DNA from: an uncultured Clostridia bacterium
GTDB taxonomy: Bacteria > Bacillota > Clostridia > Oscillospirales > Acutalibacteraceae
NCBI GenBank assembly: GCA_946004305.1
Contig: CAMFZJ010000001.1
Span: 1-43,754 of the forward strand
Length of the DNA stretch: 43,754 bases
Direction: 5' to 3'
In this document: one piece after another, positions 6,326 through 43,753 of the stretch
Numbering within the stretch: position 1 is the stretch's first letter
Layout of the letters: each line of letters begins with the position of its first letter
Notes under the pieces: model-generated
Seen by the model: only the letters and a program-made list of their open reading frames with translations
What the model was told of the DNA's origin: nothing
Databases searched by the model: none
Made by a program: the position numbers and the translations under genes

Positions 6326-8008
6326 ATGTTAAATAAGTTTGAAAACGAAGTCAAAAAGATAGCGGCTTACTGCCGCGTGTCAACCGACAATCTCGATCAG
6401 GCAAATTCACTTGAGAGTCAGCAAAGATATTTCAATGAGTATATAAAACGCAATCCGCTGTGGGAACTCTATGAAATTTATGTTGACGAGGGAATCAGCG
6501 GAACGAGTACAAAAAAGCGAGCGTCATTCAACCGAATGATAGAAGATGCGAAAGCAAAAAAGTTTGATTTGATTATCACAAAGGAAATCAGCAGATTTGC
6601 CAGAAACACTCTTGATAGCATTGGCTACACAAGAGAACTTAAAAGCTACGGCATAGGCGTGATTTTTATGAATGACAATATCAACACGCTTGACCCTGAC
6701 GCAGAACTTCGACTGACAATTATGTCGTCAATCGCTCAGGAAGAGAGCCGAAAAACCTCCGACAGAGTAAAGTGGGGACAACGCAGAATGATGGAGCAGG
6801 GCGTTGTGTTCGGCAGAGATATGCTGGGCTACGATGTCCGTGACGGAAAGCTTTACATAAATCAAGAGGGTGCAGAAACCGTCAGATTAATCTATCATAA
6901 ATTTCTCAAAGAGGGCAAAGGAACTCATATTATCGCAAAGGAGTTGCGAGATGAAGGAATCAAGACCTCAACCTATATGAAAGACTGGTCATACACGGTG
7001 ATATTGCGAATTCTCAAAAATGAAAAGTACTGCGGTGATTTGATTCAGCAGAAAACCTACACGCCCGATTATCTGTCGCACAACAAAAGATACAACAAGG
7101 GCGAGGTTGAGTATGTGACAATCCGAAATCATCACGAGCCGATTGTTTCAAGAGAGATGTTTGAAGCAACGCAACGAGAGCTTGAACGCCGAAAAAATCT
7201 TCACGGAGCAAAAAACGGCTTTGCAAACCGATACTCTCTTTCGGGAAAAATAATCTGTGCAGAGTGCGGTTCAACCTTTATCCACCGCAAAAAAACTTCA
7301 TCAAACGGAAATCAGAATGAAAGCTGGGCTTGTATTCAGAATCAGAAGTACGGCAAGGAGCAAACTAACAAAAATAATGAAAAGGTCGGCTGTTCAAATG
7401 TTTCAATAAACGAAAAGGACATTCGTTCAATCCTGCAACATATTATTTCAGATATTATGAAAGATAGAAATAGAATTTTAGAAAGCATATTGCAAATCGT
7501 GTCCGATGTTCTGAAATCAGATAAAGAGAAAGACAACATAACCTATTTTGAAAACGAGCTTGAAAAGATAGAAAACAAAAAACAAAAGCTACTTGATATG
7601 TGCCTGTCGGGTGATATAGAGACCTCGGATTACCGCAAAGCCTGCGAACGCCTCAAAGCAGAATACGAAACAATATCCGAAAAACTGCAAAAAGAAAAAG
7701 CCCACAGCAGTATGCTTGCGGACAAGGAAAAAATAATCAGTGAAATTAAAGCTTATGTAAATTCAATCATAATTGGTGAAGAGTGGAGCGATACATTTTA
7801 CCGCAACATAGTAGATAAAATTGTAGTCAACAAAAATCGTGAGCTTGACATTCACCTTAGATTCATTCCCGACAAGTGGAGTGCTAAAATCCTCTGCGGT
7901 AAGGCTGAAATTGACAGCTATAATGAAAAATTTTCCAACCAAGGCACTTCAGAGCCTATGTCCGTTAATGTTGCTTTTAATTCCGGCAAAGGCATTGTAA
8001 ATCTCTGA
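6326..8008 (+). CDS. Large serine recombinase of the non-phage element
   Basis: AAYCRVST catalytic motif, SRFARN, recombinase domain, C..CG zinc ribbon and coiled coil. AAGGAGGT RBS. Confidence 0.95.
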   Translation: MLNKFENEVKKIAAYCRVSTDNLDQANSLESQQRYFNEYIKRNPLWELYEIYVDEGISGTSTKKRASFNRMIEDAKAKKFDLIITKEISRFARNTLDSIGYTRELKSYGIGVIFMNDNINTLDPDAELRLTIMSSIAQEESRKTSDRVKWGQRRMMEQGVVFGRDMLGYDVRDGKLYINQEGAETVRLIYHKFLKEGKGTHIIAKELRDEGIKTSTYMKDWSYTVILRILKNEKYCGDLIQQKTYTPDYLSHNKRYNKGEVEYVTIRNHHEPIVSREMFEATQRELERRKNLHGAKNGFANRYSLSGKIICAECGSTFIHRKKTSSNGNQNESWACIQNQKYGKEQTNKNNEKVGCSNVSINEKDIRSILQHIISDIMKDRNRILESILQIVSDVLKSDKEKDNITYFENELEKIENKKQKLLDMCLSGDIETSDYRKACERLKAEYETISEKLQKEKAHSSMLADKEKIISEIKAYVNSIIIGEEWSDTFYRNIVDKIVVNKNRELDIHLRFIPDKWSAKILCGKAEIDSYNEKFSNQGTSEPMSVNVAFNSGKGIVNL

Positions 8009-8055
8009 CTAAGGTAACGGAGAGATGCCCCTAATTCACCATCAGGACCTCCATA
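7948..8055 (-). pseudogene. cotJC: Internal 36-codon segment of spore coat protein CotJC (manganese catalase family)
   Basis: Minus-strand translation YGGPDGELGASLRYLSQRFTMPLPELKATLTDIGSE, the conserved CotJC core. No stops or frameshifts. Confidence 0.93.
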
Positions 8056-8074
8056 CCCCTAAATGTGATAGTTT
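8047..8074. other. Left prophage att junction (core ACCTCCATAC 8047-8056 plus phage arm)
   Basis: Core is repeated at 43700-43709. Arm CCTAAATGTGATAGTTTT matches the reverse complement of the right-end arm at 16/18 positions. Confidence 0.9.
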
Positions 8075-9520
8075 TTAGCAATAAAAAAACAGCTCAATAC
8101 TTGATGTAGTGCGATTGAATACTATCTTATCAATAAAACTACGCAGAATTGCGCTTTTTTCGCCTTCTGTGACGTTTTTTGATTTAAGCTTTGATATGAC
8201 ATTTTTATTTTTTTCAATCAAATTTCGCCTTAACTTTGGCAATTTATCATCATTATTAGCTTTTGGTTGTTGCTCACGAAGTCGTGAGATTTGTCCTTGA
8301 ACAAGCTCTCTGCGCTCTTTGTATTCTTCAAGCGTATAAACTCCATCTTCGTAAGCCTCTGTAATTCGTTTTAATTTTAGGTTTTCTTTTTCAATCAATG
8401 CTTCAAAATCAATAGCAGGCTCAGCTGTCCCTGTTTCCTTAACCTTGATTTTGAACAGCCCTGTTTCAAAAGCCTGCTCCAAAGCGAGAATAACCATATT
8501 ATTAATCTTATTAATTGAAATTGAATGTGATACTGAGCAATGGCCGTGGGAGTAGCCTATACATTGAAGGGAAGTGCCTCTGACTGCCATTGACAGAGTT
8601 CTGCCGCAGTTAGAACATTTAACAAGTCCGTGAAGCATAAATTCTTCGTTGCTCTTGTGGTGTGAATAAGGAATGTAGCTTTTTTTGTTCTTGTGTATTA
8701 ATTCTTGCACTTTATTAAAGGTATCTTCATAAATAATAGGCTGGTGTGTACCGTCAACCACAATAACATCCTTGTTTTCAAAATCCCTGTGAGTTTTGCC
8801 CTTAGGGTTCCAACGGATTTTGCCTATGTAAACAGGATTTTGCAATATGTATTCAACGGTCCGATTTTCCCAGTTGTTACCTCTTGTGGTTTTAATTCCC
8901 AAATCGTTCAAGTGTGTAGCAATCTGCCTTGCCCCTTGTCCGGATAGATAATCATTGAAAATCTGCTTTACAATAGGCGCAGAATCAGGGTTGATAACAT
9001 ATTCTTTATCAACAATATCATAGCCAAATGCAGGAACGGAAACAGCTCCGCCACGTTCAACCTTTTCAAGCATCCCTCTTTTGACTTCACCGGAAAGCCT
9101 AATACTGTAGTATTCATCGGACCATTCAATAATACGCTCAATCAGAGTTCCAAAAGGACCGTCAATAACCGGCTCTGAAACGCTGATAACCTCAACACCG
9201 TTTTTGCGTAACTGAGCTTTATAAAATATACTCTCTTCTTGATTTCGAGCAAATCGGCTGAATTTCCAAAGCAGTATAGTAGAAAATGGGGAAGGCTTGT
9301 TTTTTGCTGTTGCTATCATTTTAACAAACTCCGGGCGCTTGTCTGCTCTACGTCCGGAAATACCATCATCACGAAAAATAAACTCTCTTGGTATGATATA
9401 TCCGTTTTGTTTTGCAAATTGCTGAATAGTCTTAATTTGGCTTTGCGGTGACAGTTCCGTTTGATTGTCTGTGCTTACTCTTATGTAGGCGGCAGCGGTT
9501 TTTAATTCACTATTTTTCAT
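8075..9520 (-). CDS. int: Prophage large serine integrase
   Basis: AAYIRVST, SRFARN, CSNCG zinc ribbon. ATG9520 follows AAGGAG. Stop codon abuts the att arm. Confidence 0.95.
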   Translation of the reverse strand: MKNSELKTAAAYIRVSTDNQTELSPQSQIKTIQQFAKQNGYIIPREFIFRDDGISGRRADKRPEFVKMIATAKNKPSPFSTILLWKFSRFARNQEESIFYKAQLRKNGVEVISVSEPVIDGPFGTLIERIIEWSDEYYSIRLSGEVKRGMLEKVERGGAVSVPAFGYDIVDKEYVINPDSAPIVKQIFNDYLSGQGARQIATHLNDLGIKTTRGNNWENRTVEYILQNPVYIGKIRWNPKGKTHRDFENKDVIVVDGTHQPIIYEDTFNKVQELIHKNKKSYIPYSHHKSNEEFMLHGLVKCSNCGRTLSMAVRGTSLQCIGYSHGHCSVSHSISINKINNMVILALEQAFETGLFKIKVKETGTAEPAIDFEALIEKENLKLKRITEAYEDGVYTLEEYKERRELVQGQISRLREQQPKANNDDKLPKLRRNLIEKNKNVISKLKSKNVTEGEKSAILRSFIDKIVFNRTTSSIELFFYC

Positions 9521-9569
9521 TGTATCAACTCCTTGAAAAATTGTGCAAAAATGCCCTTGCATAATTCTA

Positions 9570-9680
9570 TTGCAAATTAAACAAGGGTATGATACAATAT
9601 TACTTGTTCGGGTAAGATTGTATCATACAACCTTGCTTCTTCGCTCTGATGTATTGCAGTACATCAGGGCGATTTTTTAT
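9570..9680 (+). ncRNA. Candidate ~75-nt antisense sRNA with own promoter and terminator
   Basis: TTGCAA-N17-(TG)TACAAT at 9570-9598. Hairpin at 9641-9672 followed by TTTTTT. No protein-coding gene evident between them. Confidence 0.5.
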
Positions 9681-9681
9681 T

Positions 9682-11166
9682 TTACTTAACTTTCATTTTA
9701 CATCTTACAAGCTCTAGGTATTGACCATTTGAAATATATACATATCTTGAATTATCAAAATTATCATTGCTAATAATATTATCACTATTGGTATCTGATG
9801 TTAAAGCGTAGTAAGCACTATAATCACTTGTACAGGTAAGCTTGTATTCTCCGGCAGGCACATCAACACCGACCAAATATTGACCTTCAGTTAAATATCC
9901 ATTATCATATTCAACTTTCTGTCTTTGAGAAACAGGACGAGCTTCGCACCTTGTCAAATCCAAATACTGACCATTAGAAACGGTGAAATAGTTTTGACCG
10001 TCAAAATTGTTGTTTGCAATTATATCATCACCGTTTGCATCTGAATAAATTCCGTAATAAGCACTGTATAAACCTGTAGGGTAAGCGATATATGTACCGG
10101 CAGGAATATCCTTACCAACTTTGTAATAATCTTCTGAATAAATAATAGGCTTTGTTTCTATACCGCCGATATCTACGAATAGCGAAAGGTCTGTCTTTTC
10201 CTTTTTTAAAGCATTGATTTTTATCTTTAAATCATCATAACTGTCATTTGTAGTACATTTTCCGCTGACAGTTAAATAGTCACCTTTATTTATTTTCTTT
10301 TTTGCGTCAAGGTAAATTGTAAAATTAACTTTTTCATAACCGTCAGTTTCATATAAAGTATATTGATATTTACCTTTGCTTTTATCTGCTGAAGTTACTT
10401 TGATTGTTGTTGTTATAAATTCTTCATCATAAATAATTGGATCGTTGCATAGTTTTTTAGTGTTAATTTTTTTAAATTTAGGGTATTTATCGCCAACAGA
10501 TACAAATAGATCTTTTTCATCATAAAGCCAATCATTGCCATATAAGTCGATTTCCAGCTCATCGTTTATGTCATATACACTACATGTACCTTTTACTGTA
10601 ACATAATCACCGATATTGATTTTTTCATTTGGGCTAAGATAAATTTTGATTGAAATTTTATTAAAATTACTAAAACCATATCTGATATAATTATAATAAC
10701 TAAATCCATCTTTATCTTTTTCAATATTATTTACTTTTATTGTTGTAATTATAGTTTTATCGTCATATCGTTCATAATTTTCAACTAAATCTTTAGTGTT
10801 TACGCTTGGAGTTGTTTTTTCAGGTGTAGTGCTTTCTTCAAATGTATCAACCCCTGCTTCGCTAGAGGTTGACGGTTCTATATGTTTCACATTTGAAGTG
10901 TTTGCTATTACTATGCTTCCTAATAAAATAATAGCAATAACAATAAACACAGGTGACCAATGCTTTAACCATTGTTTCGAAAAACGTTTAGGCTCATCAA
11001 TTTCACCGCTAATTTTGAAATTTGGCTTGTTTGCAAAGTCTTTTTCATTTTCATCAACAGTTGTTGTATTTTGCTCAACCTGTAATTTGATTTCTTCTTC
11101 AAGTTTAGTACCACAATTAGGGCAGAATTTACTATCTGCTTCATAACCGCATTTTTGACACTTCAT
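9682..11166 (-). CDS. Membrane-anchored lysogeny-module protein (zinc ribbon, TM helix, two OB-fold-like repeats, two YxVGxDxPAGxY repeats)
   Basis: N-terminal CxxC..CxxC; hydrophobic VFIVIAIILLGSIVIA; duplicated I.TTIKV...GDY.TV.G.C and VG.D.PAG.Y units. Confidence 0.75.
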   Translation of the reverse strand: MKCQKCGYEADSKFCPNCGTKLEEEIKLQVEQNTTTVDENEKDFANKPNFKISGEIDEPKRFSKQWLKHWSPVFIVIAIILLGSIVIANTSNVKHIEPSTSSEAGVDTFEESTTPEKTTPSVNTKDLVENYERYDDKTIITTIKVNNIEKDKDGFSYYNYIRYGFSNFNKISIKIYLSPNEKINIGDYVTVKGTCSVYDINDELEIDLYGNDWLYDEKDLFVSVGDKYPKFKKINTKKLCNDPIIYDEEFITTTIKVTSADKSKGKYQYTLYETDGYEKVNFTIYLDAKKKINKGDYLTVSGKCTTNDSYDDLKIKINALKKEKTDLSLFVDIGGIETKPIIYSEDYYKVGKDIPAGTYIAYPTGLYSAYYGIYSDANGDDIIANNNFDGQNYFTVSNGQYLDLTRCEARPVSQRQKVEYDNGYLTEGQYLVGVDVPAGEYKLTCTSDYSAYYALTSDTNSDNIISNDNFDNSRYVYISNGQYLELVRCKMKVK

Positions 11167-11184
11167 AATTATAATCCCCTTTAA

Positions 11185-11345
11185 TTAAATTATTTTATGT
11201 GAAGCGGATGTGAATCCGCTTTTTTCAGAACCTAATAAATTAACACTTGAATTTTTAATAACAGCAATATTAGACTTTCTTGTAATCTCACTTACCTTAA
11301 CCGGCAGAGAATTACTATTATTATCAATTAAACAGTACCAAGAAA
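11185..11345 (-). pseudogene. Relic N-terminus of a second ImmA/IrrE-type peptidase
   Basis: Start-less frame SWYCLIDNNSNSLPVKVSEITRKSNIAVIKNSSVNLLGSEKSG resembles clostridial-phage ImmA N-termini, from memory. Confidence 0.4.
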
Positions 11346-11367
11346 AAATTTTTATAAATAATGATTT

Positions 11368-11586
11368 TCACCCTGCATTAGCCTCTAATTCATTATGTAT
11401 CACAGGGTTAAAATCATCAAAATGATTTAATTCTATATGTCTAATTTCGTGCTTTGTAGCTTTCTTTTGGGTAGCTATTGATAATTTAGTATTAATATAT
11501 ACGTTATAGTTTCCGTCTGAATCAATAGTCGTTAAACCTTTTACTTTAAGAGGTAATTCAATACCTCTAATAAAAATATCATACAT
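11368..11586 (-). CDS. Short ImmA/IrrE-like metallopeptidase (anti-repressor)
   Basis: G.T......YNVYINTKLS...KHEIRHI (HExxH), directly downstream of the repressor. Confidence 0.75.
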   Translation of the reverse strand: MYDIFIRGIELPLKVKGLTTIDSDGNYNVYINTKLSIATQKKATKHEIRHIELNHFDDFNPVIHNELEANAG

Positions 11587-11603
11587 TCACATCTATCCTT
11601 TAT

Positions 11604-11948
11604 TTAATCTTTTTTTAGTGCTTCAATAATCTTAACCGCTTGTTCAACATCTTCTTTTGTAGCACCCTTTGCAAGAGAAAACAGCATACGCATTTCTTCT
11701 CTATTTTTGAGTTCTTCAAGGTATTCTTGTAATTCATCAGATATTTCAGCTGATTTTTTAGAATCTGTTAGGGTATTCATATCAACGTTAAATGTATCTG
11801 CAATAGCTTCTAATATTTCAAGGCTTGGTTCTCTTGCACCACTTTCATACATGCTAATAGCACTTTTACCAACACCAATTTTTAATCCTAATTCTTCTTG
11901 GCTCATACCGTTTTGCAATCTTAATCTTTTTAAAACATCTTGAAACAT
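11604..11948 (-). CDS. CI/ImmR-like XRE repressor
   Basis: LKRLRLQNGMSQEELG...SAISMYESGAREP HTH. ATG11948 follows GGAG. Confidence 0.9.
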   Translation of the reverse strand: MFQDVLKRLRLQNGMSQEELGLKIGVGKSAISMYESGAREPSLEILEAIADTFNVDMNTLTDSKKSAEISDELQEYLEELKNREEMRMLFSLAKGATKEDVEQAVKIIEALKKD

Positions 11949-11978
11949 CTTGTAATCTCCAATCAATTTTGTATTATC

Positions 11979-12080
11979 ATAGTATCACATAATGTGAAAA
12001 AAATCAAGAAAAAAATTCACAAAATGTGTTGACAAATAAAAATATTAATGCTATTATAAAATTGTTCACAAGATGTGAAC
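11979..12080. promoter_or_regulatory. Divergent lysogeny-switch promoters with three TCACA-N3-TGTG(A/T) operators
   Basis: Leftward TTGATT-N17-TACTAT (12007-11979); rightward TTGACA-N17-TATTAT (12029-12057). Operators at 11985-11997, 12017-12029 and 12066-12078. Confidence 0.8.
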
Positions 12081-12099
12081 AGCGAAAGAAGGTGAGAAA

Positions 12100-12309
12100 A
12101 TGTTAGATGCACATGTAATAGGCTTGAAAATTAGAAATAGAAGAGAAGAATTGCATAAATCAAAAGAAACCTTGTGTAAAGAAGCTGGAATTAGTTTATC
12201 TGCTTTGGCTATGTATGAAACAGGTCAAAGAGTTGCGAGAGATGAAATTAAACCTAAAATAGCTAAAGCACTTGATATGACTATAGAGGCTCTTTTTTTT
12301 GCTATATAA
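12100..12309 (+). CDS. Cro-like HTH protein
   Basis: 69-aa XRE HTH (GISLSALAMYETGQR) divergent from the repressor. Confidence 0.88.
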   Translation: MLDAHVIGLKIRNRREELHKSKETLCKEAGISLSALAMYETGQRVARDEIKPKIAKALDMTIEALFFAI

Positions 12310-12311
12310 GT

Positions 12312-12324
12312 TCACAAATTGTGT
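12312..12324. promoter_or_regulatory. Fourth operator copy just after cro
   Basis: TCACAAATTGTGT fits the same consensus. Confidence 0.6.
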
Positions 12325-12448
12325 ACCTAGTCTGTTTTTATTACGTTTTAATAATAACAAAACCAGTCCCATAATAAGGACAGAAAAGAGGGCTTCAACG
12401 AATAACGAAAACAAGCATTCCTGCATAAAAGATAAGGAGGTGGTTTTT

Positions 12449-12646
12449 ATGGCAAGTCGAAAGCTGACAGCAAAAATGTACATTGAAATAGAGGGCAAGG
12501 ATGTCCTTTGGTATGAAATTGATGAGGACGGCAAAGTCACTTGGCACTTGCCTAAGGAAGAGGGGAAGAAGTACAGAGATAGAATGTTGAAAAATATCGG
12601 TGAGCAGATGAGCAGATATGCTTATGCCCATCCTGAAAGTCTATAA
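12449..12646 (+). CDS. 65-aa hypothetical phage protein (candidate directionality factor)
   Basis: Strong TAAGGAGGTG RBS before ATG12449. Confidence 0.7.
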   Translation: MASRKLTAKMYIEIEGKDVLWYEIDEDGKVTWHLPKEEGKKYRDRMLKNIGEQMSRYAYAHPESL

Positions 12647-12663
12647 AAGAGAGGTGAAGAAAT

Positions 12664-12909
12664 TTGGAAATTCTAACCGAAATGCAAAGAAAACAATTAA
12701 AAACAACGGCTGAAAGAGTTGATTTATGTTTAGGCACTATTAGGGCTATTGGCGGTGACGTTAATACAAAAGCTAGAGTTTTAAAGCTGAATTTCCAAAA
12801 TAGAGATGATGTACAAGCTTTAGCTATTGATTTAAACGCTACAGCATTAATTCTTGATAATGTGAAAAGAACATTAGATTTTGTTCTTGATTATGTTAAG
12901 GAGGTGTAA
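12664..12909 (+). CDS. Hypothetical phage protein
   Basis: GAGGTG RBS; tightly packed ORF. Confidence 0.65.
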   Translation: MEILTEMQRKQLKTTAERVDLCLGTIRAIGGDVNTKARVLKLNFQNRDDVQALAIDLNATALILDNVKRTLDFVLDYVKEV

Positions 12910-12911
12910 AA

Positions 12912-13181
12912 ATGAAAAATATATTATGGACAATACTTGAGCTAATCCAGCTGTACTTATACGCAATCGGCAGTTTAGTACATAAGTTGTTTGTTAAACT
13001 GTTTCCTGCTTCAGCAGCACTGTTTGCTTTATTATTCACAATCGGCTTAGAGTTCGGTGTTAAAGACGGACTGACAGCGAACACAACATCAGTTGTTATT
13101 ACTCTGTTAGTGTTTGTAATTTTGTCTTTACTCTATATTGTGGACAAGCTACACACAAAAGTAAAGGAGAGCGAGAAGTAA
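12912..13181 (+). CDS. Small membrane protein
   Basis: AGGAGGTG RBS; two or three hydrophobic segments. Confidence 0.65.
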   Translation: MKNILWTILELIQLYLYAIGSLVHKLFVKLFPASAALFALLFTIGLEFGVKDGLTANTTSVVITLLVFVILSLLYIVDKLHTKVKESEK

Positions 13182-13276
13182 TGCCCCAAGATTTAGCAAT
13201 AGGGCTGTTGGTATCAGCAGTAATTATTCTTATCGCAAAGCCGATTATAGACCTAATAAAAAAACGCAAAAAATGA
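13181..13276 (+). CDS. 31-aa single-TM peptide (not in ORF track)
   Basis: MPQDLAIGLLVSAVIILIAKPIIDLIKKRKK. TAATG overlap with the upstream stop; AAGGAG RBS. Confidence 0.55.
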   Translation: MPQDLAIGLLVSAVIILIAKPIIDLIKKRKK

Positions 13277-13367
13277 GCCATCGGAAAAAATTCCAAAATG
13301 GCTCACAAAAATTAACTTAATTTGATTATAGACGATTTTTAAAAATTCGTCAAGAGAGGAATTTATT

Positions 13368-14798
13368 ATGAAAACAAGTAAAATTACAATTCGTTCATTA
13401 TTTGGAATAAAAGAAAAAGTGCTAAATGGCACATCAGTAGAGATTACAGGCAAAAAGGGAGCAGGAAAAACATCAATTCTTGATGCAATCCGTTACGCTC
13501 TGACAAATTCATCAAACAGGGATTTAATAATCAAGCAGGGTGCTGATGAGGGCGAAATTCTAATTGAAACTGACACAGGATTGTCTATTAACCGCAAGGC
13601 GAGAAATTCTAAGGCTAATGTGATTAACGTTAGCGATAATGACGAAAGAATTACAAAACCTGAAAGTTATCTCAAATCAATTATTTCTACACTGCAACTT
13701 AATCCGGTAGAATTTACTCAAATGAGTAAGCAGGAACAGAACAGGGCTATTTTGGATTTAATTGAATTTGATTGGGATATGAATTGGATCCGAGAGAAAT
13801 TCGGAGAAATCCCTACAGGCGTTGATTATAATCAGAACATCCTGCAAGTGCTTAATGATATACAGTCCGAAAAGGGCGTCTATTACCAAAGCAGACAGGA
13901 CCTTAACAGAGATATTCGCAACAAACGAGCATTTATAAGTGATATAGCAAAGGATTTGCCGGAAAACTACAATGCTGAACAATGGGAAAACTACGATTTG
14001 CAATCAAAATACACTGAACTTTTACAACGCAAGGATATTAATAACAAGATAGACAGAGCACAGCAATTTAGAGATAACTATAATAATAAACTTCGTGGAC
14101 TACAGGCTCAGCGAGATATTGACATAACCTCAGTAGAAAACAGTATTAATAATGAACGTGAACAGTTAAAAACCTCTATAGCAAGAATGAAAGCAGAGAT
14201 TACTTCAGCAGAGGACAAGCTGAACAGTCTAAACGAAAAATTCAATGATAAAGTATCGGTTATCAACGCAAATTATAATGCGTCCAAGGAAAAACTTGAT
14301 AAAGATACAGACGTAGCTTCTCAGTATGCGGATATGCAGAAACAGCCTGTTAACGAATTACAGGACGATATTTCTTATGCCGAGCAGATGAAAAAGCACC
14401 TATCGGAATACAAGCGGATGAAAGATATGCAGGCTGATTTAGATGCATTAATCTGCAAAGCAGAGGAATATACAGAGAAGATTGAACTTGCAAGAAACTT
14501 GCCCGGAGAGATTTTACAGAAAGCAAGTTTACCTGTTGAGGGATTAACGGTTGAAAACGGCGTTCCATATATTAACGGTTTGCCTATATCTAACTGCTCC
14601 GACGGAGAATTATTAGAACTTTGCGTAGATGTGGCTATAAGCAAACCGAGCGGTTTACAAATTATTCTCATTGACGGAGCAGAGAAACTTGATGATGAAA
14701 GCAGGGAATTGCTCTATAAAAAATGCAAGGAAAAAGGTCTGCAATTTATTGCAACAAGAACTACTAACGATAATGAACTTATCGTTACCGAATTATAA
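13368..14798 (+). CDS. SMC/Rad50-like AAA ATPase with coiled coil
   Basis: GKKGAGKT Walker A, long coiled coil, SDGE signature, IILIDGAEKLD Walker B. Confidence 0.85.
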   Translation: MKTSKITIRSLFGIKEKVLNGTSVEITGKKGAGKTSILDAIRYALTNSSNRDLIIKQGADEGEILIETDTGLSINRKARNSKANVINVSDNDERITKPESYLKSIISTLQLNPVEFTQMSKQEQNRAILDLIEFDWDMNWIREKFGEIPTGVDYNQNILQVLNDIQSEKGVYYQSRQDLNRDIRNKRAFISDIAKDLPENYNAEQWENYDLQSKYTELLQRKDINNKIDRAQQFRDNYNNKLRGLQAQRDIDITSVENSINNEREQLKTSIARMKAEITSAEDKLNSLNEKFNDKVSVINANYNASKEKLDKDTDVASQYADMQKQPVNELQDDISYAEQMKKHLSEYKRMKDMQADLDALICKAEEYTEKIELARNLPGEILQKASLPVEGLTVENGVPYINGLPISNCSDGELLELCVDVAISKPSGLQIILIDGAEKLDDESRELLYKKCKEKGLQFIATRTTNDNELIVTEL

Positions 14799-14812
14799 GG
14801 AGGTATTTTAAT

Positions 14813-15346
14813 ATGGCTACACATTGGAAAAAACTAACAAATCCCAACTATTTGGGTGCTTATTCCATTGAAAACGGACAAGATTTAATATTAACTATTA
14901 AATATGTAAACGAGGAAACTGTTATCGGCACAGACGGAAAGAAAGACAACTGTGTTGTATGTCATTTTGTAGAAAACGTCAAGCCTATGATACTCAATTC
15001 TACAAATATGAAAATGATTACAAAGCTATACAAAACTCCGTACATAGAGGATTGGACAGGAAAGAAAATCCAAGTGGGTATTGAAAAAATTAAGGCTTTT
15101 GGTGAAGTAGTCGAGGCTCTGAGAATTAGGAAAACTATTCCTCAAATTCAAGCAAAAGAATTACCTAAATGTGAAATTTGCGGTAATGATATTCAACCTC
15201 TTAGCAATATGACAGCAGAACAGGTTGCGGTATATACAAAGAATAAATATGGTAAACAGCTTTGCTCTGCCTGTGCTACTAAACTTGCACAGAAAGCAAC
15301 TGAACAGAATGATTCAGAGGGGGAAATAAGTAATGCAGTTGACTAG
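14813..15346 (+). CDS. Phage recombination-module protein with C-terminal zinc finger
   Basis: THWKKLTNPNYLGAY N-terminus; CEICG..CSAC; sits between the ATPase and nuclease. Confidence 0.6.
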   Translation: MATHWKKLTNPNYLGAYSIENGQDLILTIKYVNEETVIGTDGKKDNCVVCHFVENVKPMILNSTNMKMITKLYKTPYIEDWTGKKIQVGIEKIKAFGEVVEALRIRKTIPQIQAKELPKCEICGNDIQPLSNMTAEQVAVYTKNKYGKQLCSACATKLAQKATEQNDSEGEISNAVD

Positions 15347-16103
15347 CGAAAACTACTTTAGCCTTGAAAATCAAATGAAATATATGGGTGTATCCCAATT
15401 CAAAGCCTTTGAAAATTGCCAAGCTTCCGCTTATGCGGAAGTTACTGGCAATTATGAGCAAGAAGCAACCACACCGTTACTTGTAGGCTCATATGTTGAC
15501 GCCCATTTTGAGGGAACCCTTGATATTTTCAAAGCACAGCACCCACAGTTATTTAAGCGTGACGGTAATCTTAAATCTGAATATACCAAAGCTGAGCAGA
15601 TTATTGAACGTGTAGAACGTGATGACTTATTTATGAATTATATGTCAGGCGAAAAGCAAGTTATAATGACAGGAGTTATTGAGAATGTTCCGGTCAAGAT
15701 TAAGATAGACAGTTACCATCCTGACAAGATTGTGGATTTAAAGGTTATGAAAGATTTTCAGCCTATGTACATTCCGGAAAAAGGTAAACTTAATTGGATT
15801 GAGGCTTGGAGATACGATTTGCAAGGGGCTGTATATCAGGAAATAGTAAGACAGAATACAGGCAAAGTCTTACCGTTCTATATAGCAGCAGTAACTAAAG
15901 AGAAAGAGCCGGATATTGGAATTTTTGAAATTCCTCAAAGCTATCTTGATGTGGAGCTTGAGAGTTTTAGAAGCAAGGTTATGTTATATGACACAATTAA
16001 AAAAGGAATGATTGAGCCTGAGAGGTGCGAACATTGCGATTATTGTAAGGCAAGTAAAGTGTTGAGTAAGGCAGTTAGTTTAGAGATGCTTGATTATGAA
16101 TAA
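15333..16103 (+). CDS. PD-(D/E)XK exonuclease (DUF3799/RecE-like)
   Basis: GVSQFKAF, KIKIDSY..DKIVDLK, YDLQGAVYQ and terminal Cys cluster. Confidence 0.8.
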   Translation: MQLTSENYFSLENQMKYMGVSQFKAFENCQASAYAEVTGNYEQEATTPLLVGSYVDAHFEGTLDIFKAQHPQLFKRDGNLKSEYTKAEQIIERVERDDLFMNYMSGEKQVIMTGVIENVPVKIKIDSYHPDKIVDLKVMKDFQPMYIPEKGKLNWIEAWRYDLQGAVYQEIVRQNTGKVLPFYIAAVTKEKEPDIGIFEIPQSYLDVELESFRSKVMLYDTIKKGMIEPERCEHCDYCKASKVLSKAVSLEMLDYE

Positions 16104-16518: not shown

Positions 16519-16528
16519 GGTGTACGGT

Positions 16529-31659: not shown

Positions 31660-31676
31660 AAAGAGAGGTTTTTGTC

Positions 31677-36401: not shown

Positions 36402-36585
36402 GATAAATATTTATTGATTTCTGTGTGATATATGTTTTAAAGTAAACAAAGCCACTCCAAATGGGGTGGCTATAGTTTCGCAGAAATTCTAAAAAACTTA
36501 TTAAAATTCAATCTATCCACTAAAGCGTACATTCTACGGAGTGTACGCTGTTTTTATACAATTTTTTGAAAGGAAGTGGTAATAA

Positions 36586-37005
36586 ATGTATGGAGAAAAC
36601 TTTAAAGGCCATTTGCTAAAGTTCACTAAAAGCAAGGCAATATTCCCGACCAAATATATTGCTTTAGACAGTTTTAAAGCGACTCCTTTACAACGCACTG
36701 AAGTAAAAGCCTACCGTGACAGTCTTAACAAGCTCCACAGAGTAACCTCGCCAAACCACAAAACAAAACTCGTGTTTAGCACAACAGCACTCAATCTGGC
36801 AGAGCTTAGAGAGATTTTATCCTTACTGGATAATGCGTATGCAAATAAAACGCAAAGAAAGGTATCTGTGGAATATTGGGATGATGAATTGCTAAGCTAC
36901 CGCACTATGACAGCTTATTTGCCCGACATAACGTACACTAAAGAAAAAATCACAGGAAATGATATACAATACGAACCTGTTGAATTAACTTTCATTGAGT
37001 ATTAA
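36586..37005 (+). CDS. Distal tail protein
   Basis: Follows tape measure gene; ends in LTFIEY. Confidence 0.65.
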   Translation: MYGENFKGHLLKFTKSKAIFPTKYIALDSFKATPLQRTEVKAYRDSLNKLHRVTSPNHKTKLVFSTTALNLAELREILSLLDNAYANKTQRKVSVEYWDDELLSYRTMTAYLPDITYTKEKITGNDIQYEPVELTFIEY

Positions 37006-37019
37006 GGTGGCGGGAAAGT

Positions 37020-38324
37020 ATGCTTAAAATAAATAGTGATGATGAAAAAGATAAGCTATATAAAAGCCTGATTATGAACGAGCTTTTAGATAATATTCTT
37101 GAAATTACCATACTAAATGATGACGGTTTAACTGTTTCAACTATTACAGAGGACAATATTGTTTCCGAAAGTATGACGCTAAAACAAGAAATTTGTGATA
37201 GTGAGAATTTCAGGTTTGGCGGATGTATAGCAAGCGAATTTGACATACAACTGATAGATACTGAAGAAAAAACCTTCAGCAATGATTTAGTAGGTAAAAA
37301 AATTGTTGTAAAATTGTCGCAAGTCTATCCTTTGGAATTTTATCCTTCAACGGATTTGTATCCTAGTGTGGATTTGTATCCCGGATATCATAAGCTTACT
37401 CAGACGTGGCGCTTGTTTGTTGGAACAATAGACAGTGCCAAAATAGATGATGGAAATAAACATATACACAATATTGTGGCTTATGACCCTATTGCTAAGC
37501 TATACCAAAGCAATGTTAGTAACAACCTTTACAATGCTTCAACAAAGGATAAAGCTACAATCCGGGATTTATTATCTTTGTGTTTGGAAAGCTCTGAATA
37601 TAGTGCTGAGGATTTTAACTTATCTTCAGAGTATCAGTATCGAAATTATTATTGGGAAGCCGAGAAACAGAAAAATCCAAATGGGATAAAGATAACTAAG
37701 GGCGAACTCCTTAATGATATTTGTGATGTTAGTTGCGGTTTTGGCTTCTTTAGACCCAGTGAAGCAAAATTAAGGCTTTTGAACTGTAATGATAGCATAC
37801 ACGGAACAGAAAAATATGATTTTTATGAATCTCTAACAACAGATGAAAAATCAACATCCGGTTTTGATGGGTTATTCTTTCCGTATGCAGGAAAAATTGA
37901 AGATAAAAACAATGGTGGAGATTGGAAAAATGAAACAGGCATTTTATCACAAAATGGTTTAGTGGTTGGTGAGGACCCTGACGAATCAGAAAACTATTAT
38001 GATTATTCCGACAACATTCTTGCTTGGGATTATTCTTCGGATAATTCAGGCTCAAATTTAATAAAGGCATATGTTTTATACAACAACTTAAATGATAATC
38101 TATCAACAGAGCTTGATTATGTGCCGATTACCGCCGTTGTAGAAGGTAGATTGTGGGTTGAGGTAGGTGACACAATTATTATTAATGAACCTGAAACAGA
38201 TTTAAACGGTGATTTTATATATGATAACGAAGGAAACCAAGTTTTTACTAAAGTGAAAAGTAGAGTGCTTTCTCGCACTCTTACAGGTATTAAGGCTTTG
38301 ACAGATAGCATAGAAGCTAAGTAA
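37020..38324 (+). CDS. Tail hub/baseplate protein
   Basis: Position; FGGCIASEF, LYPS repeats, WVEVGD, LSRTLTGI. Confidence 0.7.
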   Translation: MLKINSDDEKDKLYKSLIMNELLDNILEITILNDDGLTVSTITEDNIVSESMTLKQEICDSENFRFGGCIASEFDIQLIDTEEKTFSNDLVGKKIVVKLSQVYPLEFYPSTDLYPSVDLYPGYHKLTQTWRLFVGTIDSAKIDDGNKHIHNIVAYDPIAKLYQSNVSNNLYNASTKDKATIRDLLSLCLESSEYSAEDFNLSSEYQYRNYYWEAEKQKNPNGIKITKGELLNDICDVSCGFGFFRPSEAKLRLLNCNDSIHGTEKYDFYESLTTDEKSTSGFDGLFFPYAGKIEDKNNGGDWKNETGILSQNGLVVGEDPDESENYYDYSDNILAWDYSSDNSGSNLIKAYVLYNNLNDNLSTELDYVPITAVVEGRLWVEVGDTIIINEPETDLNGDFIYDNEGNQVFTKVKSRVLSRTLTGIKALTDSIEAK

Positions 38325-38370
38325 TGACTATTAATAATTTAACAAATAAGATAAGAAAGGAAGTATATCA

Positions 38371-40560
38371 ATGGATAGTTATAGCAAAAATTCATGGACA
38401 AATGGTGGCGGAATACCTTTAAGTGCGGAACATCTGAATCATATGGAAGAGGGTATTTATAAAGCCACAGAGAAGCTAATCGAACTTGAAGAATTTGCAG
38501 AAGAAATTGATAATAACAAAGTACACTTTGGAGATTATTCAAGTTCTGTTACTGGTAATATAAGAGTTTTAGATAGTTTTAGAGATAACGAAACCGTATA
38601 CAAAGTCTTGCTATCAGGCGAATTATATGGCGGTACCAAAGATATGTATTGCTTAATGTATAATGCCGGAGATAGTCAAATCCTGTTAAGTGATGACGGA
38701 CAAATCTATTCAAGAAGTACAGCTGATGATATTTTTAAATCAATAACATCAAATAAGCTTGACGATACTGATAACAGCGTCAAGAGTAACAACCTTGCTG
38801 ACGGTGCAGTCACATCAGCTAAAATAGCTGAGGGTGCTGTTACTAGAGGAAAGATTGGGTACCAAGCTATTTCAGATTCACATCAAATTGCCAGCGGAGT
38901 TATTAAAGGCTATACAGCACAATATGATAGGGGACACATAGCCGAAAAGACAATCACAGAATATAACCTTGCCGACAATGTTGTTACAACTGAAAAAATT
39001 GTTGATAATGCTGTTTCATCAGGCAAAATTATGGACAGGGCTGTTGGGTTTAGCAAGCTTGATAAGGACACAATGATTGACACATCTTCAAACAGCAGTA
39101 TGTCATATGCTCTTGCAAGTGACAGCCACATTCCAACCACAGGCTTTGTTAAGGCTATTAACGAGGGAACAAAAGAGAAGATAGATACCGAGATAGCTCA
39201 GGTCAACAAAAGCATTGATAATCTGTTTGTAAAAAAAGAATTGCTTGTTAATCTTTCAAGCTTTATTGACGAAAGCACAGGCGATTACAAAAATCCAGGC
39301 AGATATTACTATAGCTCAGCAGACAAAATAGTGGGAATTTCCAACGATAGCAATTACGCTTGCATTCCGATTGAGCTTAAAGCAGGGTTGTACTCTGTTG
39401 AAAATATTAATCCATATTATTCATTTTATTTACTCAACAATCAGGTTGTAAGGTTTGGCGGTGCAGAAAACGCATTTATAAGTACAACATTTGAGTTACC
39501 AATAGATACCACTTTATATGTGACTATTCGTGTAGTTTCTTCGTCAAACGGTCACGAAACCGTTGCAATTGCAAGCGGTGACACAATCCCTGACGATATT
39601 TCAACTCTTGGTGTGTTTAGCTATGACACCCACACAAAGCTTGACAGCGTAGCGAAGCTTGAAGAAAAAATACCTTCCGTTATTACAGTCAAAAAAGACG
39701 GAACAGGAGATTTTTCAACCTTAAAGGAAGCAGTAGAGTATTCTCAAACTAAAAGTGATTTGACAATTGAGGTATATGAGGGAACATATGACTTGATTGA
39801 AGAATTTGGAGATGAGTATTTTACCAATTTATCAGGTACTTCACAAAGACGGGGCTTGCAGATAGGTAACGGAGTACATTTGATTTTCTCCAGCGGTTCT
39901 AAGGTTGTTTGCCATTATCAGGGAGATAACGAAACAGTAAAAACCTGTTTCTCTCCTTTTAATTATATTCAGTGTACAAAAGGCTTTACCCTTGAAAATC
40001 TAACCCTTGAAGCTTCAAATGTAAGATATGCAATTCACGATGAGGCAGGTTCAAGTACATTGAATATGTATAGAAACACCTATAAGAATTGTAAAATTAC
40101 AATAGATAACTCAAATAATGAGGTTTGGAAAAAACATAAGTGTATTGGTGGCGGATTAGGGCTTCACGGTGAAATAATTATAGAAAACTGTAGCTTTACC
40201 GATATGTATAATGTTGGTTCCAAAGTATCAGCAGTAAGCTACCATAATGTAGTTTCGGAAGGTGCAAAAAGCAGAATTATAGTAACAGGCTGTTACTTCT
40301 CGGACAATGCAACTTTTAGCTTGGCATACTACGGCAACAGTACGGAAATAACGGAAGCATATGTAAGCAACTGCTCTATGACCTATGAGCCGTATGTTAG
40401 AGCTGAAACAAGCGAATACACAACTGAAAACGTAAAGCTTATTATGTGGAATAACACAATTAATGATGGTGCTTCATACACAGCAGGAAACGGAATTAAA
40501 ATTGAAAACAATACTATTTCCCTTAACCTGCCTGTTTATAGCGGAGGTGTAGTCGAATGA
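38371..40560 (+). CDS. Tail fibre/spike with pectin-lyase-like beta-helix (putative depolymerase)
   Basis: LSAEHLNHMEEGI N-terminus; ADGAVTSAKI repeats; ITVKKDGTGDFSTLKEAVE; IEVYEGTY. Confidence 0.7.
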   Translation: MDSYSKNSWTNGGGIPLSAEHLNHMEEGIYKATEKLIELEEFAEEIDNNKVHFGDYSSSVTGNIRVLDSFRDNETVYKVLLSGELYGGTKDMYCLMYNAGDSQILLSDDGQIYSRSTADDIFKSITSNKLDDTDNSVKSNNLADGAVTSAKIAEGAVTRGKIGYQAISDSHQIASGVIKGYTAQYDRGHIAEKTITEYNLADNVVTTEKIVDNAVSSGKIMDRAVGFSKLDKDTMIDTSSNSSMSYALASDSHIPTTGFVKAINEGTKEKIDTEIAQVNKSIDNLFVKKELLVNLSSFIDESTGDYKNPGRYYYSSADKIVGISNDSNYACIPIELKAGLYSVENINPYYSFYLLNNQVVRFGGAENAFISTTFELPIDTTLYVTIRVVSSSNGHETVAIASGDTIPDDISTLGVFSYDTHTKLDSVAKLEEKIPSVITVKKDGTGDFSTLKEAVEYSQTKSDLTIEVYEGTYDLIEEFGDEYFTNLSGTSQRRGLQIGNGVHLIFSSGSKVVCHYQGDNETVKTCFSPFNYIQCTKGFTLENLTLEASNVRYAIHDEAGSSTLNMYRNTYKNCKITIDNSNNEVWKKHKCIGGGLGLHGEIIIENCSFTDMYNVGSKVSAVSYHNVVSEGAKSRIIVTGCYFSDNATFSLAYYGNSTEITEAYVSNCSMTYEPYVRAETSEYTTENVKLIMWNNTINDGASYTAGNGIKIENNTISLNLPVYSGGVVE

Positions 40561-41396
40561 TTAATGTTGAAATGACAAAATCGTCTGGTGTTACGTTAGC
40601 AACTGAAAATACCATTTGCAATGAAAACGTAAAAGTCACTATTGCAAATGGCGAAAATCTAATAGCGGAAAACATTAAAAAAGACGTGCAGATTGCAGAC
40701 GTTGTAGGAACATTTGAGGGTGGTGGCGGTGATGATACCGTTTTGAAAGGTTTAATTCAACGTGATATAACTGAAATTGTTATTCCTGATAGTGTAACAA
40801 GCATTGGAAGTTATGCTTTTTACGGCTTTAACAGCTTAAACAAAATCTCACTTCCCAATAGCTTAATAACGATTGGTGCATGTGCGTTTATGGGTTGTTC
40901 GAGCTTGAGAAGTTTAAAAACCCCATTGAATGTGGAAATACTACCAAAGCAAATGTGTGGGAATTGCACTTCATTATCGTCAGTAACTTTTTTAGGTGAT
41001 ATAAAACAAATAGGTGTAGAGGCTTTTTTGCAATGTTATGATTTGAAAGAACTCATACTTCCAAACAGTCTTATCATGATAGACAATGACGCTTTTACAA
41101 GAAGTGGTTTAGTAAATGTTAATTTACCCACTTCGTTAACAAGCGTAAGCACAAATGCTTTTCGCAGTTGTACAAAATTAGAGTTTGTAACTCTTGAACA
41201 AGGCTTTAATGCGAATAATTTAAACTTATCCGCAAGTAATCTATACACAGCAGAAACAATAGTATCTTGGATTGAAGCACTTGCTGATAGAACAGGACAA
41301 TCCACGTACATATTAACTATTGGTAGCACTAATATTGCAAAACTGACTGAAGAACAAATTGCAATAGCAACAAATAAAAACTGGACTTTAGCATAA
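40557..41396 (+). CDS. BspA-like leucine-rich repeat (LRR_5) protein
   Basis: About six IPDSVTSIGSYAF-type repeats; ends ATNKNWTLA. Confidence 0.85.
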   Translation: MINVEMTKSSGVTLATENTICNENVKVTIANGENLIAENIKKDVQIADVVGTFEGGGGDDTVLKGLIQRDITEIVIPDSVTSIGSYAFYGFNSLNKISLPNSLITIGACAFMGCSSLRSLKTPLNVEILPKQMCGNCTSLSSVTFLGDIKQIGVEAFLQCYDLKELILPNSLIMIDNDAFTRSGLVNVNLPTSLTSVSTNAFRSCTKLEFVTLEQGFNANNLNLSASNLYTAETIVSWIEALADRTGQSTYILTIGSTNIAKLTEEQIAIATNKNWTLA

Positions 41397-41412
41397 AAAC
41401 AGGAGGTAAAAT

Positions 41413-41619
41413 ATGGAACTAAAAATGTTAAGTTTTCCAAGTGGAATAAGAATGGTATTTTGTGAGGATACAGAAAATTTTGTTGTCACAGATGTAGAAA
41501 CCGAAACAATGAGAGCAGAGTTTATCTATTTGGGAAAAGATGATAGCATTGACAACTACAAGGCAATCGATAGAAATACACCTGTTCCTGAACAAACAGA
41601 AAGCGAGGAAACATTATGA
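41413..41619 (+). CDS. Hypothetical tail-associated protein
   Basis: AGGAGGT RBS; YLGKDDSIDNY. Confidence 0.6.
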   Translation: MELKMLSFPSGIRMVFCEDTENFVVTDVETETMRAEFIYLGKDDSIDNYKAIDRNTPVPEQTESEETL

Positions 41620-42047
41620 AAGAATTAATTAGCACCGCTATTGGTGTTGTAGGAAGTTTTATTGCCGGACTTTTCGGCGGATGGAGTACAGGCATGGCGA
41701 CATTATTAATCTTTATGGCAGTTGACTATTTAACAGGCTTAATCTGTGCAGGGGTTTTTAAGTCCTCAGCAAAATCAAAAAGCGGTGGACTTGAAAGCCG
41801 AGCCGGCTGGAAAGGACTGTGCCGTAAAGGTGTTACAATCCTAATAGTGCTTGTTGCTTATAGGCTTGATTTACTTATTGGCACAAACTACATAAGAGAT
41901 GCAGTTGTTATTGCCTTTTGTGCTAACGAATTAATCTCAATCGTTGAGAATTGCGGACTTATGGGTTTACCGTTGCCTAAGCCTATAATTAAGGCTATTG
42001 ATGTATTAAAAAACAAAACAGAAAAGGATGATGAGGAAAATGAGTAA
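41616..42047 (+). CDS. Holin (phage holin 4 / toxin-secretion family)
   Basis: GGW, DYLTG, GLCRK, NELISIVEN.GLMG.P.P. Confidence 0.9.
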   Translation: MKELISTAIGVVGSFIAGLFGGWSTGMATLLIFMAVDYLTGLICAGVFKSSAKSKSGGLESRAGWKGLCRKGVTILIVLVAYRLDLLIGTNYIRDAVVIAFCANELISIVENCGLMGLPLPKPIIKAIDVLKNKTEKDDEENE

Positions 42048-42840
42048 TTCAAAACTTGTTAATTACAAAAAGCTATCACCATATAATAGTGGTCGCCGAA
42101 CTCACAAGATTGATACAGTATCAATCCATTGTGTTGTCGGTCAAATGTCTGCGTTAAGTTTAGGTTATGAATTTTCAAAACCATTTAAAAATGCTTCATC
42201 AAATTATGGTATAGGATATGATGGCGAAATCGGTTGTTATGTAAATGAGGATTCTGTAAGTTGGTGTACATCTTCACAAGAAAATGATAACAGAGCCGTT
42301 ACAATCGAAGTAGCTTCTGATACATTTGCTCCGTATAAAGTTACAAATAAAGCTTATAAGTCGCTTATAACACTTCTAGCTGATATTTGTATTCGTAACA
42401 ATATTAAAGAATTGAAGTGGAAAGCTGACAAGAGCTTAATCGGTCAAGTTGATAAGCAGAATATGACTGTACACAGATGGTTTAATCCGGGAAAGTCTTG
42501 CCCCGGCGATTATCTATATAATCTTCATGGACAGATTGCCAAAGAAGTAAACGAAAGAATTAACTGTGGCTTTAAGATTGGCAAAAAGGTTCGTTTCACC
42601 AAAAATAAGAACATCTACAAGGCAGACTGCAAGACTAGGGTTAAATATAGCTCACTAAACAAAAATTGGAAGGCAAAATCACACAAGGGTATAACAGGTA
42701 AAGCTGTATTTGATAAAGGAGAAACAGCAATTTTGAAAGCTATTGAACACAAAAACGGCAAAGTGTTCGGTGTGTTCGGTGGCAAGAATTATAGAATATT
42801 GCTCGTTGACAAAAAAGGCAAGAAAACCGGAAAACAGTAA
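42040..42840 (+). CDS. Endolysin, N-acetylmuramoyl-L-alanine amidase (Amidase_2)
   Basis: SIHCVVG, ASSNYGIG, TIEVA, HRWF..KSCPG; basic C-terminus. Confidence 0.9.
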   Translation: MSNSKLVNYKKLSPYNSGRRTHKIDTVSIHCVVGQMSALSLGYEFSKPFKNASSNYGIGYDGEIGCYVNEDSVSWCTSSQENDNRAVTIEVASDTFAPYKVTNKAYKSLITLLADICIRNNIKELKWKADKSLIGQVDKQNMTVHRWFNPGKSCPGDYLYNLHGQIAKEVNERINCGFKIGKKVRFTKNKNIYKADCKTRVKYSSLNKNWKAKSHKGITGKAVFDKGETAILKAIEHKNGKVFGVFGGKNYRILLVDKKGKKTGKQ

Positions 42841-42865
42841 TAAGCGATTTATCAGTAAATTAAAA

Positions 42866-42907
42866 TCCCCACTTACTCTGATTGAGTAGGTGGGGAGATT
42901 ATTTTTT
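42866..42907. terminator. Terminator between convergent lysin and HTH genes
   Basis: TCCCCACTTACTC / GAGTAGGTGGGGA stem with A/T-rich flanks. Confidence 0.75.
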
Positions 42908-43262
42908 AGAAATAAAAACTTATTCTGACATTTTCGTTATAAACATCGTGGAACTCTGATTCAAGAGCTTTAATTTGATATTTATTTAATTTTTTCAAAT
43001 CATCAAATGTCATATCATATTTATTTAATATTTTTTCAATTTTTTCTTTTTTAGTCAATATTTCAACTTTTTCATCTACTAAGTCATAAACGGAGCAGTC
43101 AAGAGCTTTGCAAATTTTATCAAGAGTACCCCATTTTATAGAATTCAAGTGCCTAACTTCTCTTTCAATGTCAGAAATGTACTGCTTAGCACAACCGACT
43201 TCATCAGCCAGTTGCTGTTGTGTCAAGCCTCTAAGATTTCTTATTTTTTTCAAATTGTTCAT
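42906..43262 (-). CDS. XRE HTH protein (Aca-like position)
   Basis: LKKIRNLRGLTQQQLADEVGCAKQYISDIE, plus a ~50-aa C-terminal extension. Confidence 0.85.
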   Translation of the reverse strand: MNNLKKIRNLRGLTQQQLADEVGCAKQYISDIEREVRHLNSIKWGTLDKICKALDCSVYDLVDEKVEILTKKEKIEKILNKYDMTFDDLKKLNKYQIKALESEFHDVYNENVRISFYF

Positions 43263-43303
43263 TTTAATATACCTTATTCAAAAATTTAGGATTTTCCTTT
43301 ACC

Positions 43304-43513
43304 TTATATAATTTCATATCCACAAATTTCAAATTCATCTTCGTCAATTTCTCTGTATTGAGGATACAGACGGTGTTCAGAATCAATTTCGAAGTATTCG
43401 CCGTTCCAAAACTCATCTCCGTACTGTTCGAACCATTCACCGAGAGCGTTAATATCGTCTTGAGTTGCGTTTGGATTTAATGCATTGTTTTTTAATTCAT
43501 TGTAGTCGTACAT
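43304..43513 (-). CDS. 69-aa highly acidic protein (anti-defence candidate)
   Basis: 19 D/E versus 3 K/R; aromatic-rich; GAAAGGA RBS. Confidence 0.75.
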   Translation of the reverse strand: MYDYNELKNNALNPNATQDDINALGEWFEQYGDEFWNGEYFEIDSEHRLYPQYREIDEDEFEICGYEII

Positions 43514-43563
43514 GATTTTTCCTTTCCGGTGTTTAGGATTTTCCTTTCCTTATCTTTGACTAT

Positions 43564-43654
43564 ATTATAACACAAAAATATGAATTTGTAAACTATAAAT
43601 GTTACTTTTTTAAATAAAATTATGCACAAATGTTATGTATGTTTTTTGTGCATA
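43564..43654 (-). promoter_or_regulatory. Strong sigma-A promoter with upstream 10-bp inverted repeat
   Basis: TTTACA-N17-(TG)TATAAT (43592-43564); TATGCACAAA-N14-TTTGTGCATA (43621-43654). Confidence 0.75.
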
Positions 43655-43674
43655 TTTACAAAACATTACATTAT

Positions 43675-43709
43675 AAAACTATAACATTTTGGAATACGCA
43701 CCTCCATAC
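43675..43709. other. Right prophage att junction (phage arm plus core ACCTCCATAC 43700-43709)
   Basis: Core identical to 8047-8056; arm AAAACTATAACATTTTGG. Confidence 0.9.
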
Positions 43710-43753
43710 TGTGTGATAATTATTTTAGCAAGCTTTGGGTTTGGATTTTTGAT
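43700..43753 (-). pseudogene. cotJC: 5' segment of cotJC (start codon lies beyond the window)
   Basis: Minus strand reads IKNPNPKLAKIIITQYGG, the CotJC N-terminal region, then runs into phage sequence. Confidence 0.9.

Follow-up and report, generated by a model that had tools for sequence, protein, structure and literature searches.

How can a spore coat gene that lies in separate pieces still yield its product? The question is raised by cotJC in a 43,754-nucleotide stretch of DNA (contig CAMFZJ010000001.1, positions 1 to 43,754, of assembly GCA_946004305.1), here called the window, from an uncultured Clostridia bacterium of the family Acutalibacteraceae. Two unrelated elements, a prophage and a non-phage island, interrupt the cotJC reading frame in this window. 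We consider it probable that both excise in the sporulating mother cell by means of small predicted recombination directionality factors (RDFs), rebuilding cotJC for the spore coat.

The split was evident from the junctions. The core ACCTCCATAC (10 bp) is present twice, at 8047-8056 and 43700-43709, and across it the translations ..IIITQYGG and YGGPDGEL..DIG form one continuous frame of consecutive Mn-catalase parts; the Pfam family Mn_catalase matches the middle piece. On these grounds we retain the claim of an earlier sequence-only reading of the window that cotJC is divided here. The phage crossover was placed at the GG of Gly31 because the arms are symmetric around it at 20 of 26 positions, compared with no more than 9 at any of the other eight offsets of the core scan. 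For the island, comparison of the window's arm with the far arms from five related elements gives pairing about the GG of Gly62 (13-16 of 26 positions), and the downstream cotJC piece of relatives begins G-T-E-E. This leaves a host piece of 95 bp, and the 'SE' of DIGSE is element sequence, an island arm that imitates T-E. The island break, which had been read as lying inside the E-E-x-x-H motif, is accordingly moved to just before it. All cotJC breaks adjoin the most conserved motifs of the alignment, which we take to be the holders of the Mn ligands.

Both insertions lie in the coding region of cotJC in the cotJABC operon, which has a sigmaK-type promoter, and at each a large serine recombinase gene adjoins the att site. 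The two integrases are 27 % identical. Their genes are convergent with a gap of 66 bp, as had been noted, but the middle piece does not lie wholly between them, as 54 bp of it also code, on the opposite strand, for the C-terminal tail of the island integrase (stop at 8008). Between its att sites the prophage carries the lysogeny, replication, head, tail and lysis genes of an intact temperate phage; relatives in IMG/VR were found for its capsid at 59-79 % (80 capsid loci) and for its integrase at four loci only. The island continues past the left end of the window, and its restriction- or defence-like helicase gave weak restriction-like PADLOC matches. The description of two independent elements, an intact-looking phage and a non-phage island, thus holds, and rebuilding cotJC takes two excisions. 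Feature coordinates are given in Table 1.

Table 1. Features of the interrupted cotJC locus in the window (aa, amino acids; ORF, open reading frame)
Feature	Position	Strand	Remarks
cotJC 5' piece end, codons 14-31	43701..43754	(-)	full piece with cotJA-cotJB on contig C175
cotJC middle piece, codons 31-62, open frame	7955..8049	(-)	95 bp
Phage attL	43675..43709	(-)	core 43709-43700, crossover GG 43702-43701, then phage arm
Phage attR	8048..8075	(-)	phage arm and crossover GG 8049-8048; arm symmetry
Island attL	7929..7956	(-)	crossover GG 7956-7955 and island arm including 'SE' mimic
Prophage, ~35.65 kb	8050..43702		repressor, cro, replication, terminase, portal, capsid, tail, tape measure, holin and amidase genes
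Phage large serine integrase, 495 aa	8075..9562	(-)	
65-aa ORF after cro, candidate RDF	12449..12646	(+)	position and conservation
sigmaK-type promoter-like site (AC-N17-CATA) before 65-aa ORF	12403..12434	(+)	
Island large serine integrase, 560 aa	6326..8008	(+)	last residues from cotJC antisense strand
59-aa ORF, candidate RDF	5890..6069	(+)	conserved upstream of Gly62-type integrases; predicted integrase binding
sigmaE-type promoter-like site (ATA-N17-CATA), SpoIIID-like box in spacer	5843..5873	(+)	
Island cargo	1..5400		ResIII/DEAD helicase 1285-3945, DUF6076 gene 4103-4996, ORFs of unnamed function

Alleles carrying fewer elements were found both in the source assembly, which is 85 % complete, and in sequencing runs, 4 of the 20 listed runs having been compared with the window, all as assembled contigs. 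RNA runs shared less than a tenth of the sequence words searched for. Another contig of the same assembly, C175, carries cotJA, cotJB and cotJC codons 1-46 uninterrupted through the phage site. It is 100 % identical to the window pieces, overlaps both phage junctions of the window by 55 bp, and supplies the cotJA-cotJB-cotJC start that had been predicted beyond the right end of the window. Since C175 is phage-free and the window is lysogenic, both the lysogen and the empty site were present in the sample, the latter representing either a non-lysogen or excised mother-cell DNA. In run X1, which may be related to the source sample, one contig covers 6237-8414 with 19 differences from the window, so the double split exists beyond the window contig. 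A second X1 contig of 887 bp, found with the island end of the relative G001, joins the far island arm to the cotJC 3' piece, as had been expected to the left of the island; the depth is similar (8.6 vs 7.6), with no physical link to the double-split contig. Contigs of runs X2 and X5 carry the phage end and diverge from the window at 7947; the loose end in X2 reads E-L-G-H-L-E-M, which is the island-free allele, and phage-only alleles predominate in two runs. The frame is restored at the phage site on C175, and at the island site on the island-free X2 and X5 contigs and by in silico rejoining in relatives; the window's own far island end is missing. A search of metagenome contigs gave no match to the exact middle-piece pattern and two loci with the junction pattern, both from other species.

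Site specificity of the island integrase family is apparent in that a cotJC-like piece was present in 72 of the 80 GTDB loci holding relatives of the island integrase, the 80 spanning Acutalibacteraceae, Ruminococcus sp., Lachnospiraceae, Oscillospiraceae and Pelotomaculum. The island-type integrase at those 72 loci was intact in 66, cut by the locus edge in three and not intact in three. Within the genus, cotJC was matched in 118 of 120 genomes, 113 of which were classified by hand (three with an incompletely known state), whilst seven unclear genomes were excluded and 45 weak matches went unlisted. The gene was intact in 65 and split in 48 (~42 %) of these 113, with breaks at three hot spots, near codon 31-34 in 19, near codon 62 in 21 and near codon 135 in 16. 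Relatives G011, G002 and G062, each with three cotJC pieces, and G061, with four, rejoin in silico to proteins of 201-208 aa that keep the conserved motifs in place, and in each the pieces are co-oriented on one contig. The four pieces of G061 are spread over 62 kb by elements of 41.5, 8.2 and 12.4 kb, and G002 is a single-contig genome without an intact cotJC copy. Four cotJC pieces were also present in G064 and G166.

The island carries a 59-aa ORF, a candidate RDF, that is kept in related elements down to ~25 % identity. The predicted binding site of its product is in the C-terminal region of the integrase, at residues 362-399 and 470-525 (residues 295-525 modelled, with 28-row alignments). 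The complex score was 0.79 against 0.10 for the best of three controls, with a partner pLDDT (predicted local distance difference test) of 76, and contacts agreed by at least 88 % between runs; the mark for this score is reached by 116 of 157 solved pairs and by 2 of 215 mismatched pairs. Upstream of the ORF family, in 29 sequences picked from homologue matches to reduce redundancy, the pattern ATA-N16-18-CATA lies just ahead of the ORF in 25, compared with 1 of 29 in a control window further upstream, and 19 among the 25 have ACA(A/G) in the spacer. Nine of the 25 fit the full Bacillus subtilis SpoIIID consensus. The Clostridioides difficile SpoIIID consensus is KRTAACARK (PMC5025042). A -35 ATA marks sigmaE promoters and AC marks sigmaK promoters, and the cotJ operons of C. 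difficile are sigmaK-dependent (PMC3789822). The island promoter site ranks 7/1067 among background ORFs on a sigmaE matrix (12 distant relatives), with spoIIIAA at 13/1067.

For the phage integrase, the 65-aa ORF is a candidate RDF by its position and conservation. Homologues occur in six other elements of the Gly31 region, one of them a non-phage element of 6.9 kb, and CATA stands 24-25 nt ahead of the start in all seven family members. The site before the window ORF ranks 8/1067 on a sigmaK matrix (13/21 cotJ promoters). Neither small ORF has a usable name in Pfam, PHROGs or the protein atlas.

These features are consistent with a staged course of events. The island would leave first, under sigmaE and SpoIIID, and the phage later, under sigmaK; the sigmaK-type cotJ promoter would then transcribe the rejoined gene to give full-length CotJC in the mother cell, whilst the spore would keep both elements. 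We infer the timing and the compartment of excision from known systems, in particular the C. difficile skin element in sigK, whose RDF, CD1234, is under sigmaE and SpoIIID (PMC5025042); the sigmaE-type site with a SpoIIID-like box before the island ORF matches that system. That the cotJC pieces are still in use, as had been suggested from the unmutated middle piece, is now probable given the candidate RDFs with their mother-cell-type promoters and the relatives that rejoin at full length. The need for two excisions we infer to be a by-product of a multi-site hot spot that tolerates any self-excising element. Among host genes, spoIIID, spoIVA, spoIIIAA and a sigE-like gene are present.

Several observations weigh against excision in the mother cell. 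No excision, circle or transcript was seen, the runs having been compared as assembled contigs only, and an attP junction contig was not found in the source assembly. The cotJC 3' piece was not found there either (by Pfam, tblastn or the island ends of relatives), so the 'three pieces' of the sequence-only reading are shown here for two only. The search for sigK in the same assembly was also negative; full-length strong matches in 14 of 16 relatives make an assembly gap likelier than loss. The complex score of the 59-aa ORF may reflect likeness to solved integrase-RDF pairs, and each promoter matrix draws on few sequences, which are related to one another. The 65-aa phage ORF is without a family match, and its promoter site fails the sigmaE matrix (1041/1067). 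Only two of its six homologues rank high on the sigmaK matrix (3/1067) and that of G011 ranks 863/1067; of the four that do not rank high, two carry the sigmaE pattern and two match neither type closely. The integrase is broken in three relatives. Pairwise ratios of nonsynonymous to synonymous polymorphism (pN/pS) of 0.03-0.28 are saturated, show no difference between split alleles and intact ones and do not allow the period in the split state to be singled out; the set excluded G007, L114, L105 and L106, in which rejoined frames were mis-cut or missing (that of L106 ran past codon 175). Finally, B. subtilis cotJC mutants are described as having no apparent defect (PMC12122855), and selection to restore the gene may therefore be weak.

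The last point would be expected if the locus were a passive hot spot, in which cotJC is nearly dispensable and the elements inactivate it, excising only for their own spread and on no developmental cue. The mild effect of cotJC mutation in C. difficile (PMC11222575) agrees with this, as do the Mn-catalase paralogue carried by some relatives and the phage-free allele of the same assembly, which may come from a non-lysogen. We regard it as unlikely nonetheless: cotJC is split in such a large share of the classified genomes, yet those rejoined frames that were inspected have their full length; the mother-cell-type promoters before the small ORFs are conserved while the flanking DNA diverges; and even elements of only 2.6-3.8 kb retain an integrase.

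The sequence-only reading had gone further than mother-cell excision and proposed a two-step AND gate. As a selected design, such a gate would mean that the host retains two elements since staged excisions tune, or time, the appearance of CotJC. The two candidate RDF promoters do differ, one being sigmaE-like and the other sigmaK-like, and the layout recurs in several families. Selection for such a gate would predict more multiply split alleles than independent insertion, and no such enrichment was seen. Zero, one, two and three sites were occupied in 65, 41, 6 and 1 genomes, compared with 65.7, 39.1, 7.7 and 0.5 expected under independence (seven multi-split alleles against 8.2 expected), in what is a rough test given that kin are not independent and that assembly of metagenome-assembled genomes (MAGs) may favour empty alleles. 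The gate as a selected design is therefore not supported. Phage-only alleles dominate two runs, phage-free strains also exist, and the cotJ promoter is already of sigmaK type, so that a gate would add little; we consider this explanation improbable. An assembly chimera, with a phage-bearing strain joined at the middle piece to one bearing the island, could draw on the branching of the assembly graph at the phage site (the 55-bp overlaps), which indicates more than one allele in the sample, yet it is most improbable in view of the single X1 contig across 6237-8414 and of the same convergent two-integrase layout in at least 11 of the 80 GTDB loci, some from records not labelled MAGs (L109, L115 and L117 among them).

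Excision in the mother cell would place cotJC alongside several known systems. The C. difficile skin element likewise interrupts a mother-cell gene and combines a large serine integrase (CD1231) with a small RDF; it is a single element in a regulatory gene, whereas cotJC is a coat gene holding two unrelated elements whose candidate RDFs have no family match. Single elements are also described for spsM (SPbeta), spoVFB (vfbin), spoVR (vrin), gerE (gin) and yabG (yin) (PMC4191935, PMC5595907, PMC10747680). In these, too, an intact phage or a non-phage island leaves during sporulation and the gene is rebuilt; each of these genes is described with one element, whereas cotJC holds a phage and an island together and at least three elements in relatives. 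Among heterocyst elements, up to four occur in one gene, Rivularia nifD (PMC4874684), and the nifBHDK genes of Calothrix NIES-4101 are restored by several excisions and inversions (PMC11249958). Those are nif genes of cyanobacteria, whilst cotJC belongs to the mother cell of an endospore-former, one of its elements is an intact phage, and its RDFs are predicted to be sigma-staged. cotJC itself has been named as a frequent integration target (bioRxiv 10.1101/2021.11.22.469490, citing Abe et al. 2013), and multi-site cases may already stand in the tables of that earlier paper. Distant integrases are reported to share target genes by Durrant 2022, in the main text of which the word 'manganese' is absent. 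Literature searches, with most subscription journals outside their scope, found no published case of two or more elements dividing a gene of a spore-former, nor any account of multiple cotJC sites, their double to quadruple occupancy or their genus-wide frequency. What may be new here is the cotJC double split in a spore-former; cotJC as a target and multi-element genes in cyanobacteria were known.

If correct, mother-cell excision of both elements would mean that programmed DNA rearrangement in spore-formers is not limited to one element per gene, and that roughly four in ten genomes of a gut genus go through it routinely, in several steps, at a single coat gene. With natural alleles that carry from zero to four elements, it would be testable whether elements time development for the host or hide cost-free in mother-cell genes; the agreement with independent insertion speaks for the latter. 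Several sets of serine integrase, att site and candidate RDF, acting no more than 100-300 bp apart, are also available at this locus and useful for recombinase logic. A broader view, which we offer tentatively and hold to be somewhat less probable than its opposite, is that gut Clostridia hold cotJC as a scrambled developmental gene, which the mother cell reassembles through as many as four site-specific recombinations, staged under sigmaE and then sigmaK via two RDF families without an earlier name, in some strains including inversion (G007) or the rebuilding of a nested integrase (G163). It would then be an endospore counterpart of nif unscrambling in Calothrix, with a large proportion of a common genus carrying it.

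Several relatives showed unusual arrangements of the locus. In G007, a MAG (G007:C2:127693-151444; loci L036 and L037), cotJC appears to be in four pieces with three integrases; one piece, near 132077, is a tiny Y-G-G-P-D-G stretch, and the middle piece is inverted. This layout fits a composite element with two opposed attP sites that integrated and then inverted, and restoration would need inversion as well as excisions; no repeat pair bounding the inversion was found. The sigK gene of G007 is also in two pieces. A Gly62-type integrase is broken near codon 51 in L091/L167 (G163) and L065 (G164). In G163 its N-terminal part and the small ORF are on another contig, and the remainder is preceded by another serine-recombinase element; the search for an N-terminal part in G164 was negative. 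A nested, ordered cascade is a possible reading. The same tiny Y-G-G-P-D-G piece lies between two convergent integrases in G065 (L143, L144), where the 3' piece, from codon ~65, follows a further recombinase, and this genome possibly holds four elements. An extra insertion site near codon 174 (R-F-G-E) is occupied by a 16.7-kb element in G064 (G064:C6:114091-130767; L140, L141). Duplicated cotJC 3' ends were present in L051 (G030:C97), G072, G085, G145 and G147, and in G030 a cassette ~70 % like window positions 708-2963 (helicase) sits between the two 3' copies.

In the island, the integrase tail is host-encoded at 7955-8008 when the element is integrated, and excision would replace it. A conserved role for this tail swap was considered and dropped: tails in the excised form range from ~6 to more than 90 residues among relatives, a spread too wide for any function to be claimed. 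An X1 contig links positions 4005 and 1, with an additional 27 letters. An island circle was considered for this joint and set aside, there being no att site there; the joint probably reflects a repeated terminator-like hairpin (3968-4005 and 1-38) flanking a cargo cassette. In the phage, a gene for a 494-aa probable membrane protein (9682-11166) adjoins the integrase gene, a tyrosine integrase-family gene (19983-21098) lies midway in the early region, with ParB-like and PAPS-reductase-like genes as neighbours, and the tail module includes a BspA-type leucine-rich-repeat gene (40557-41396).

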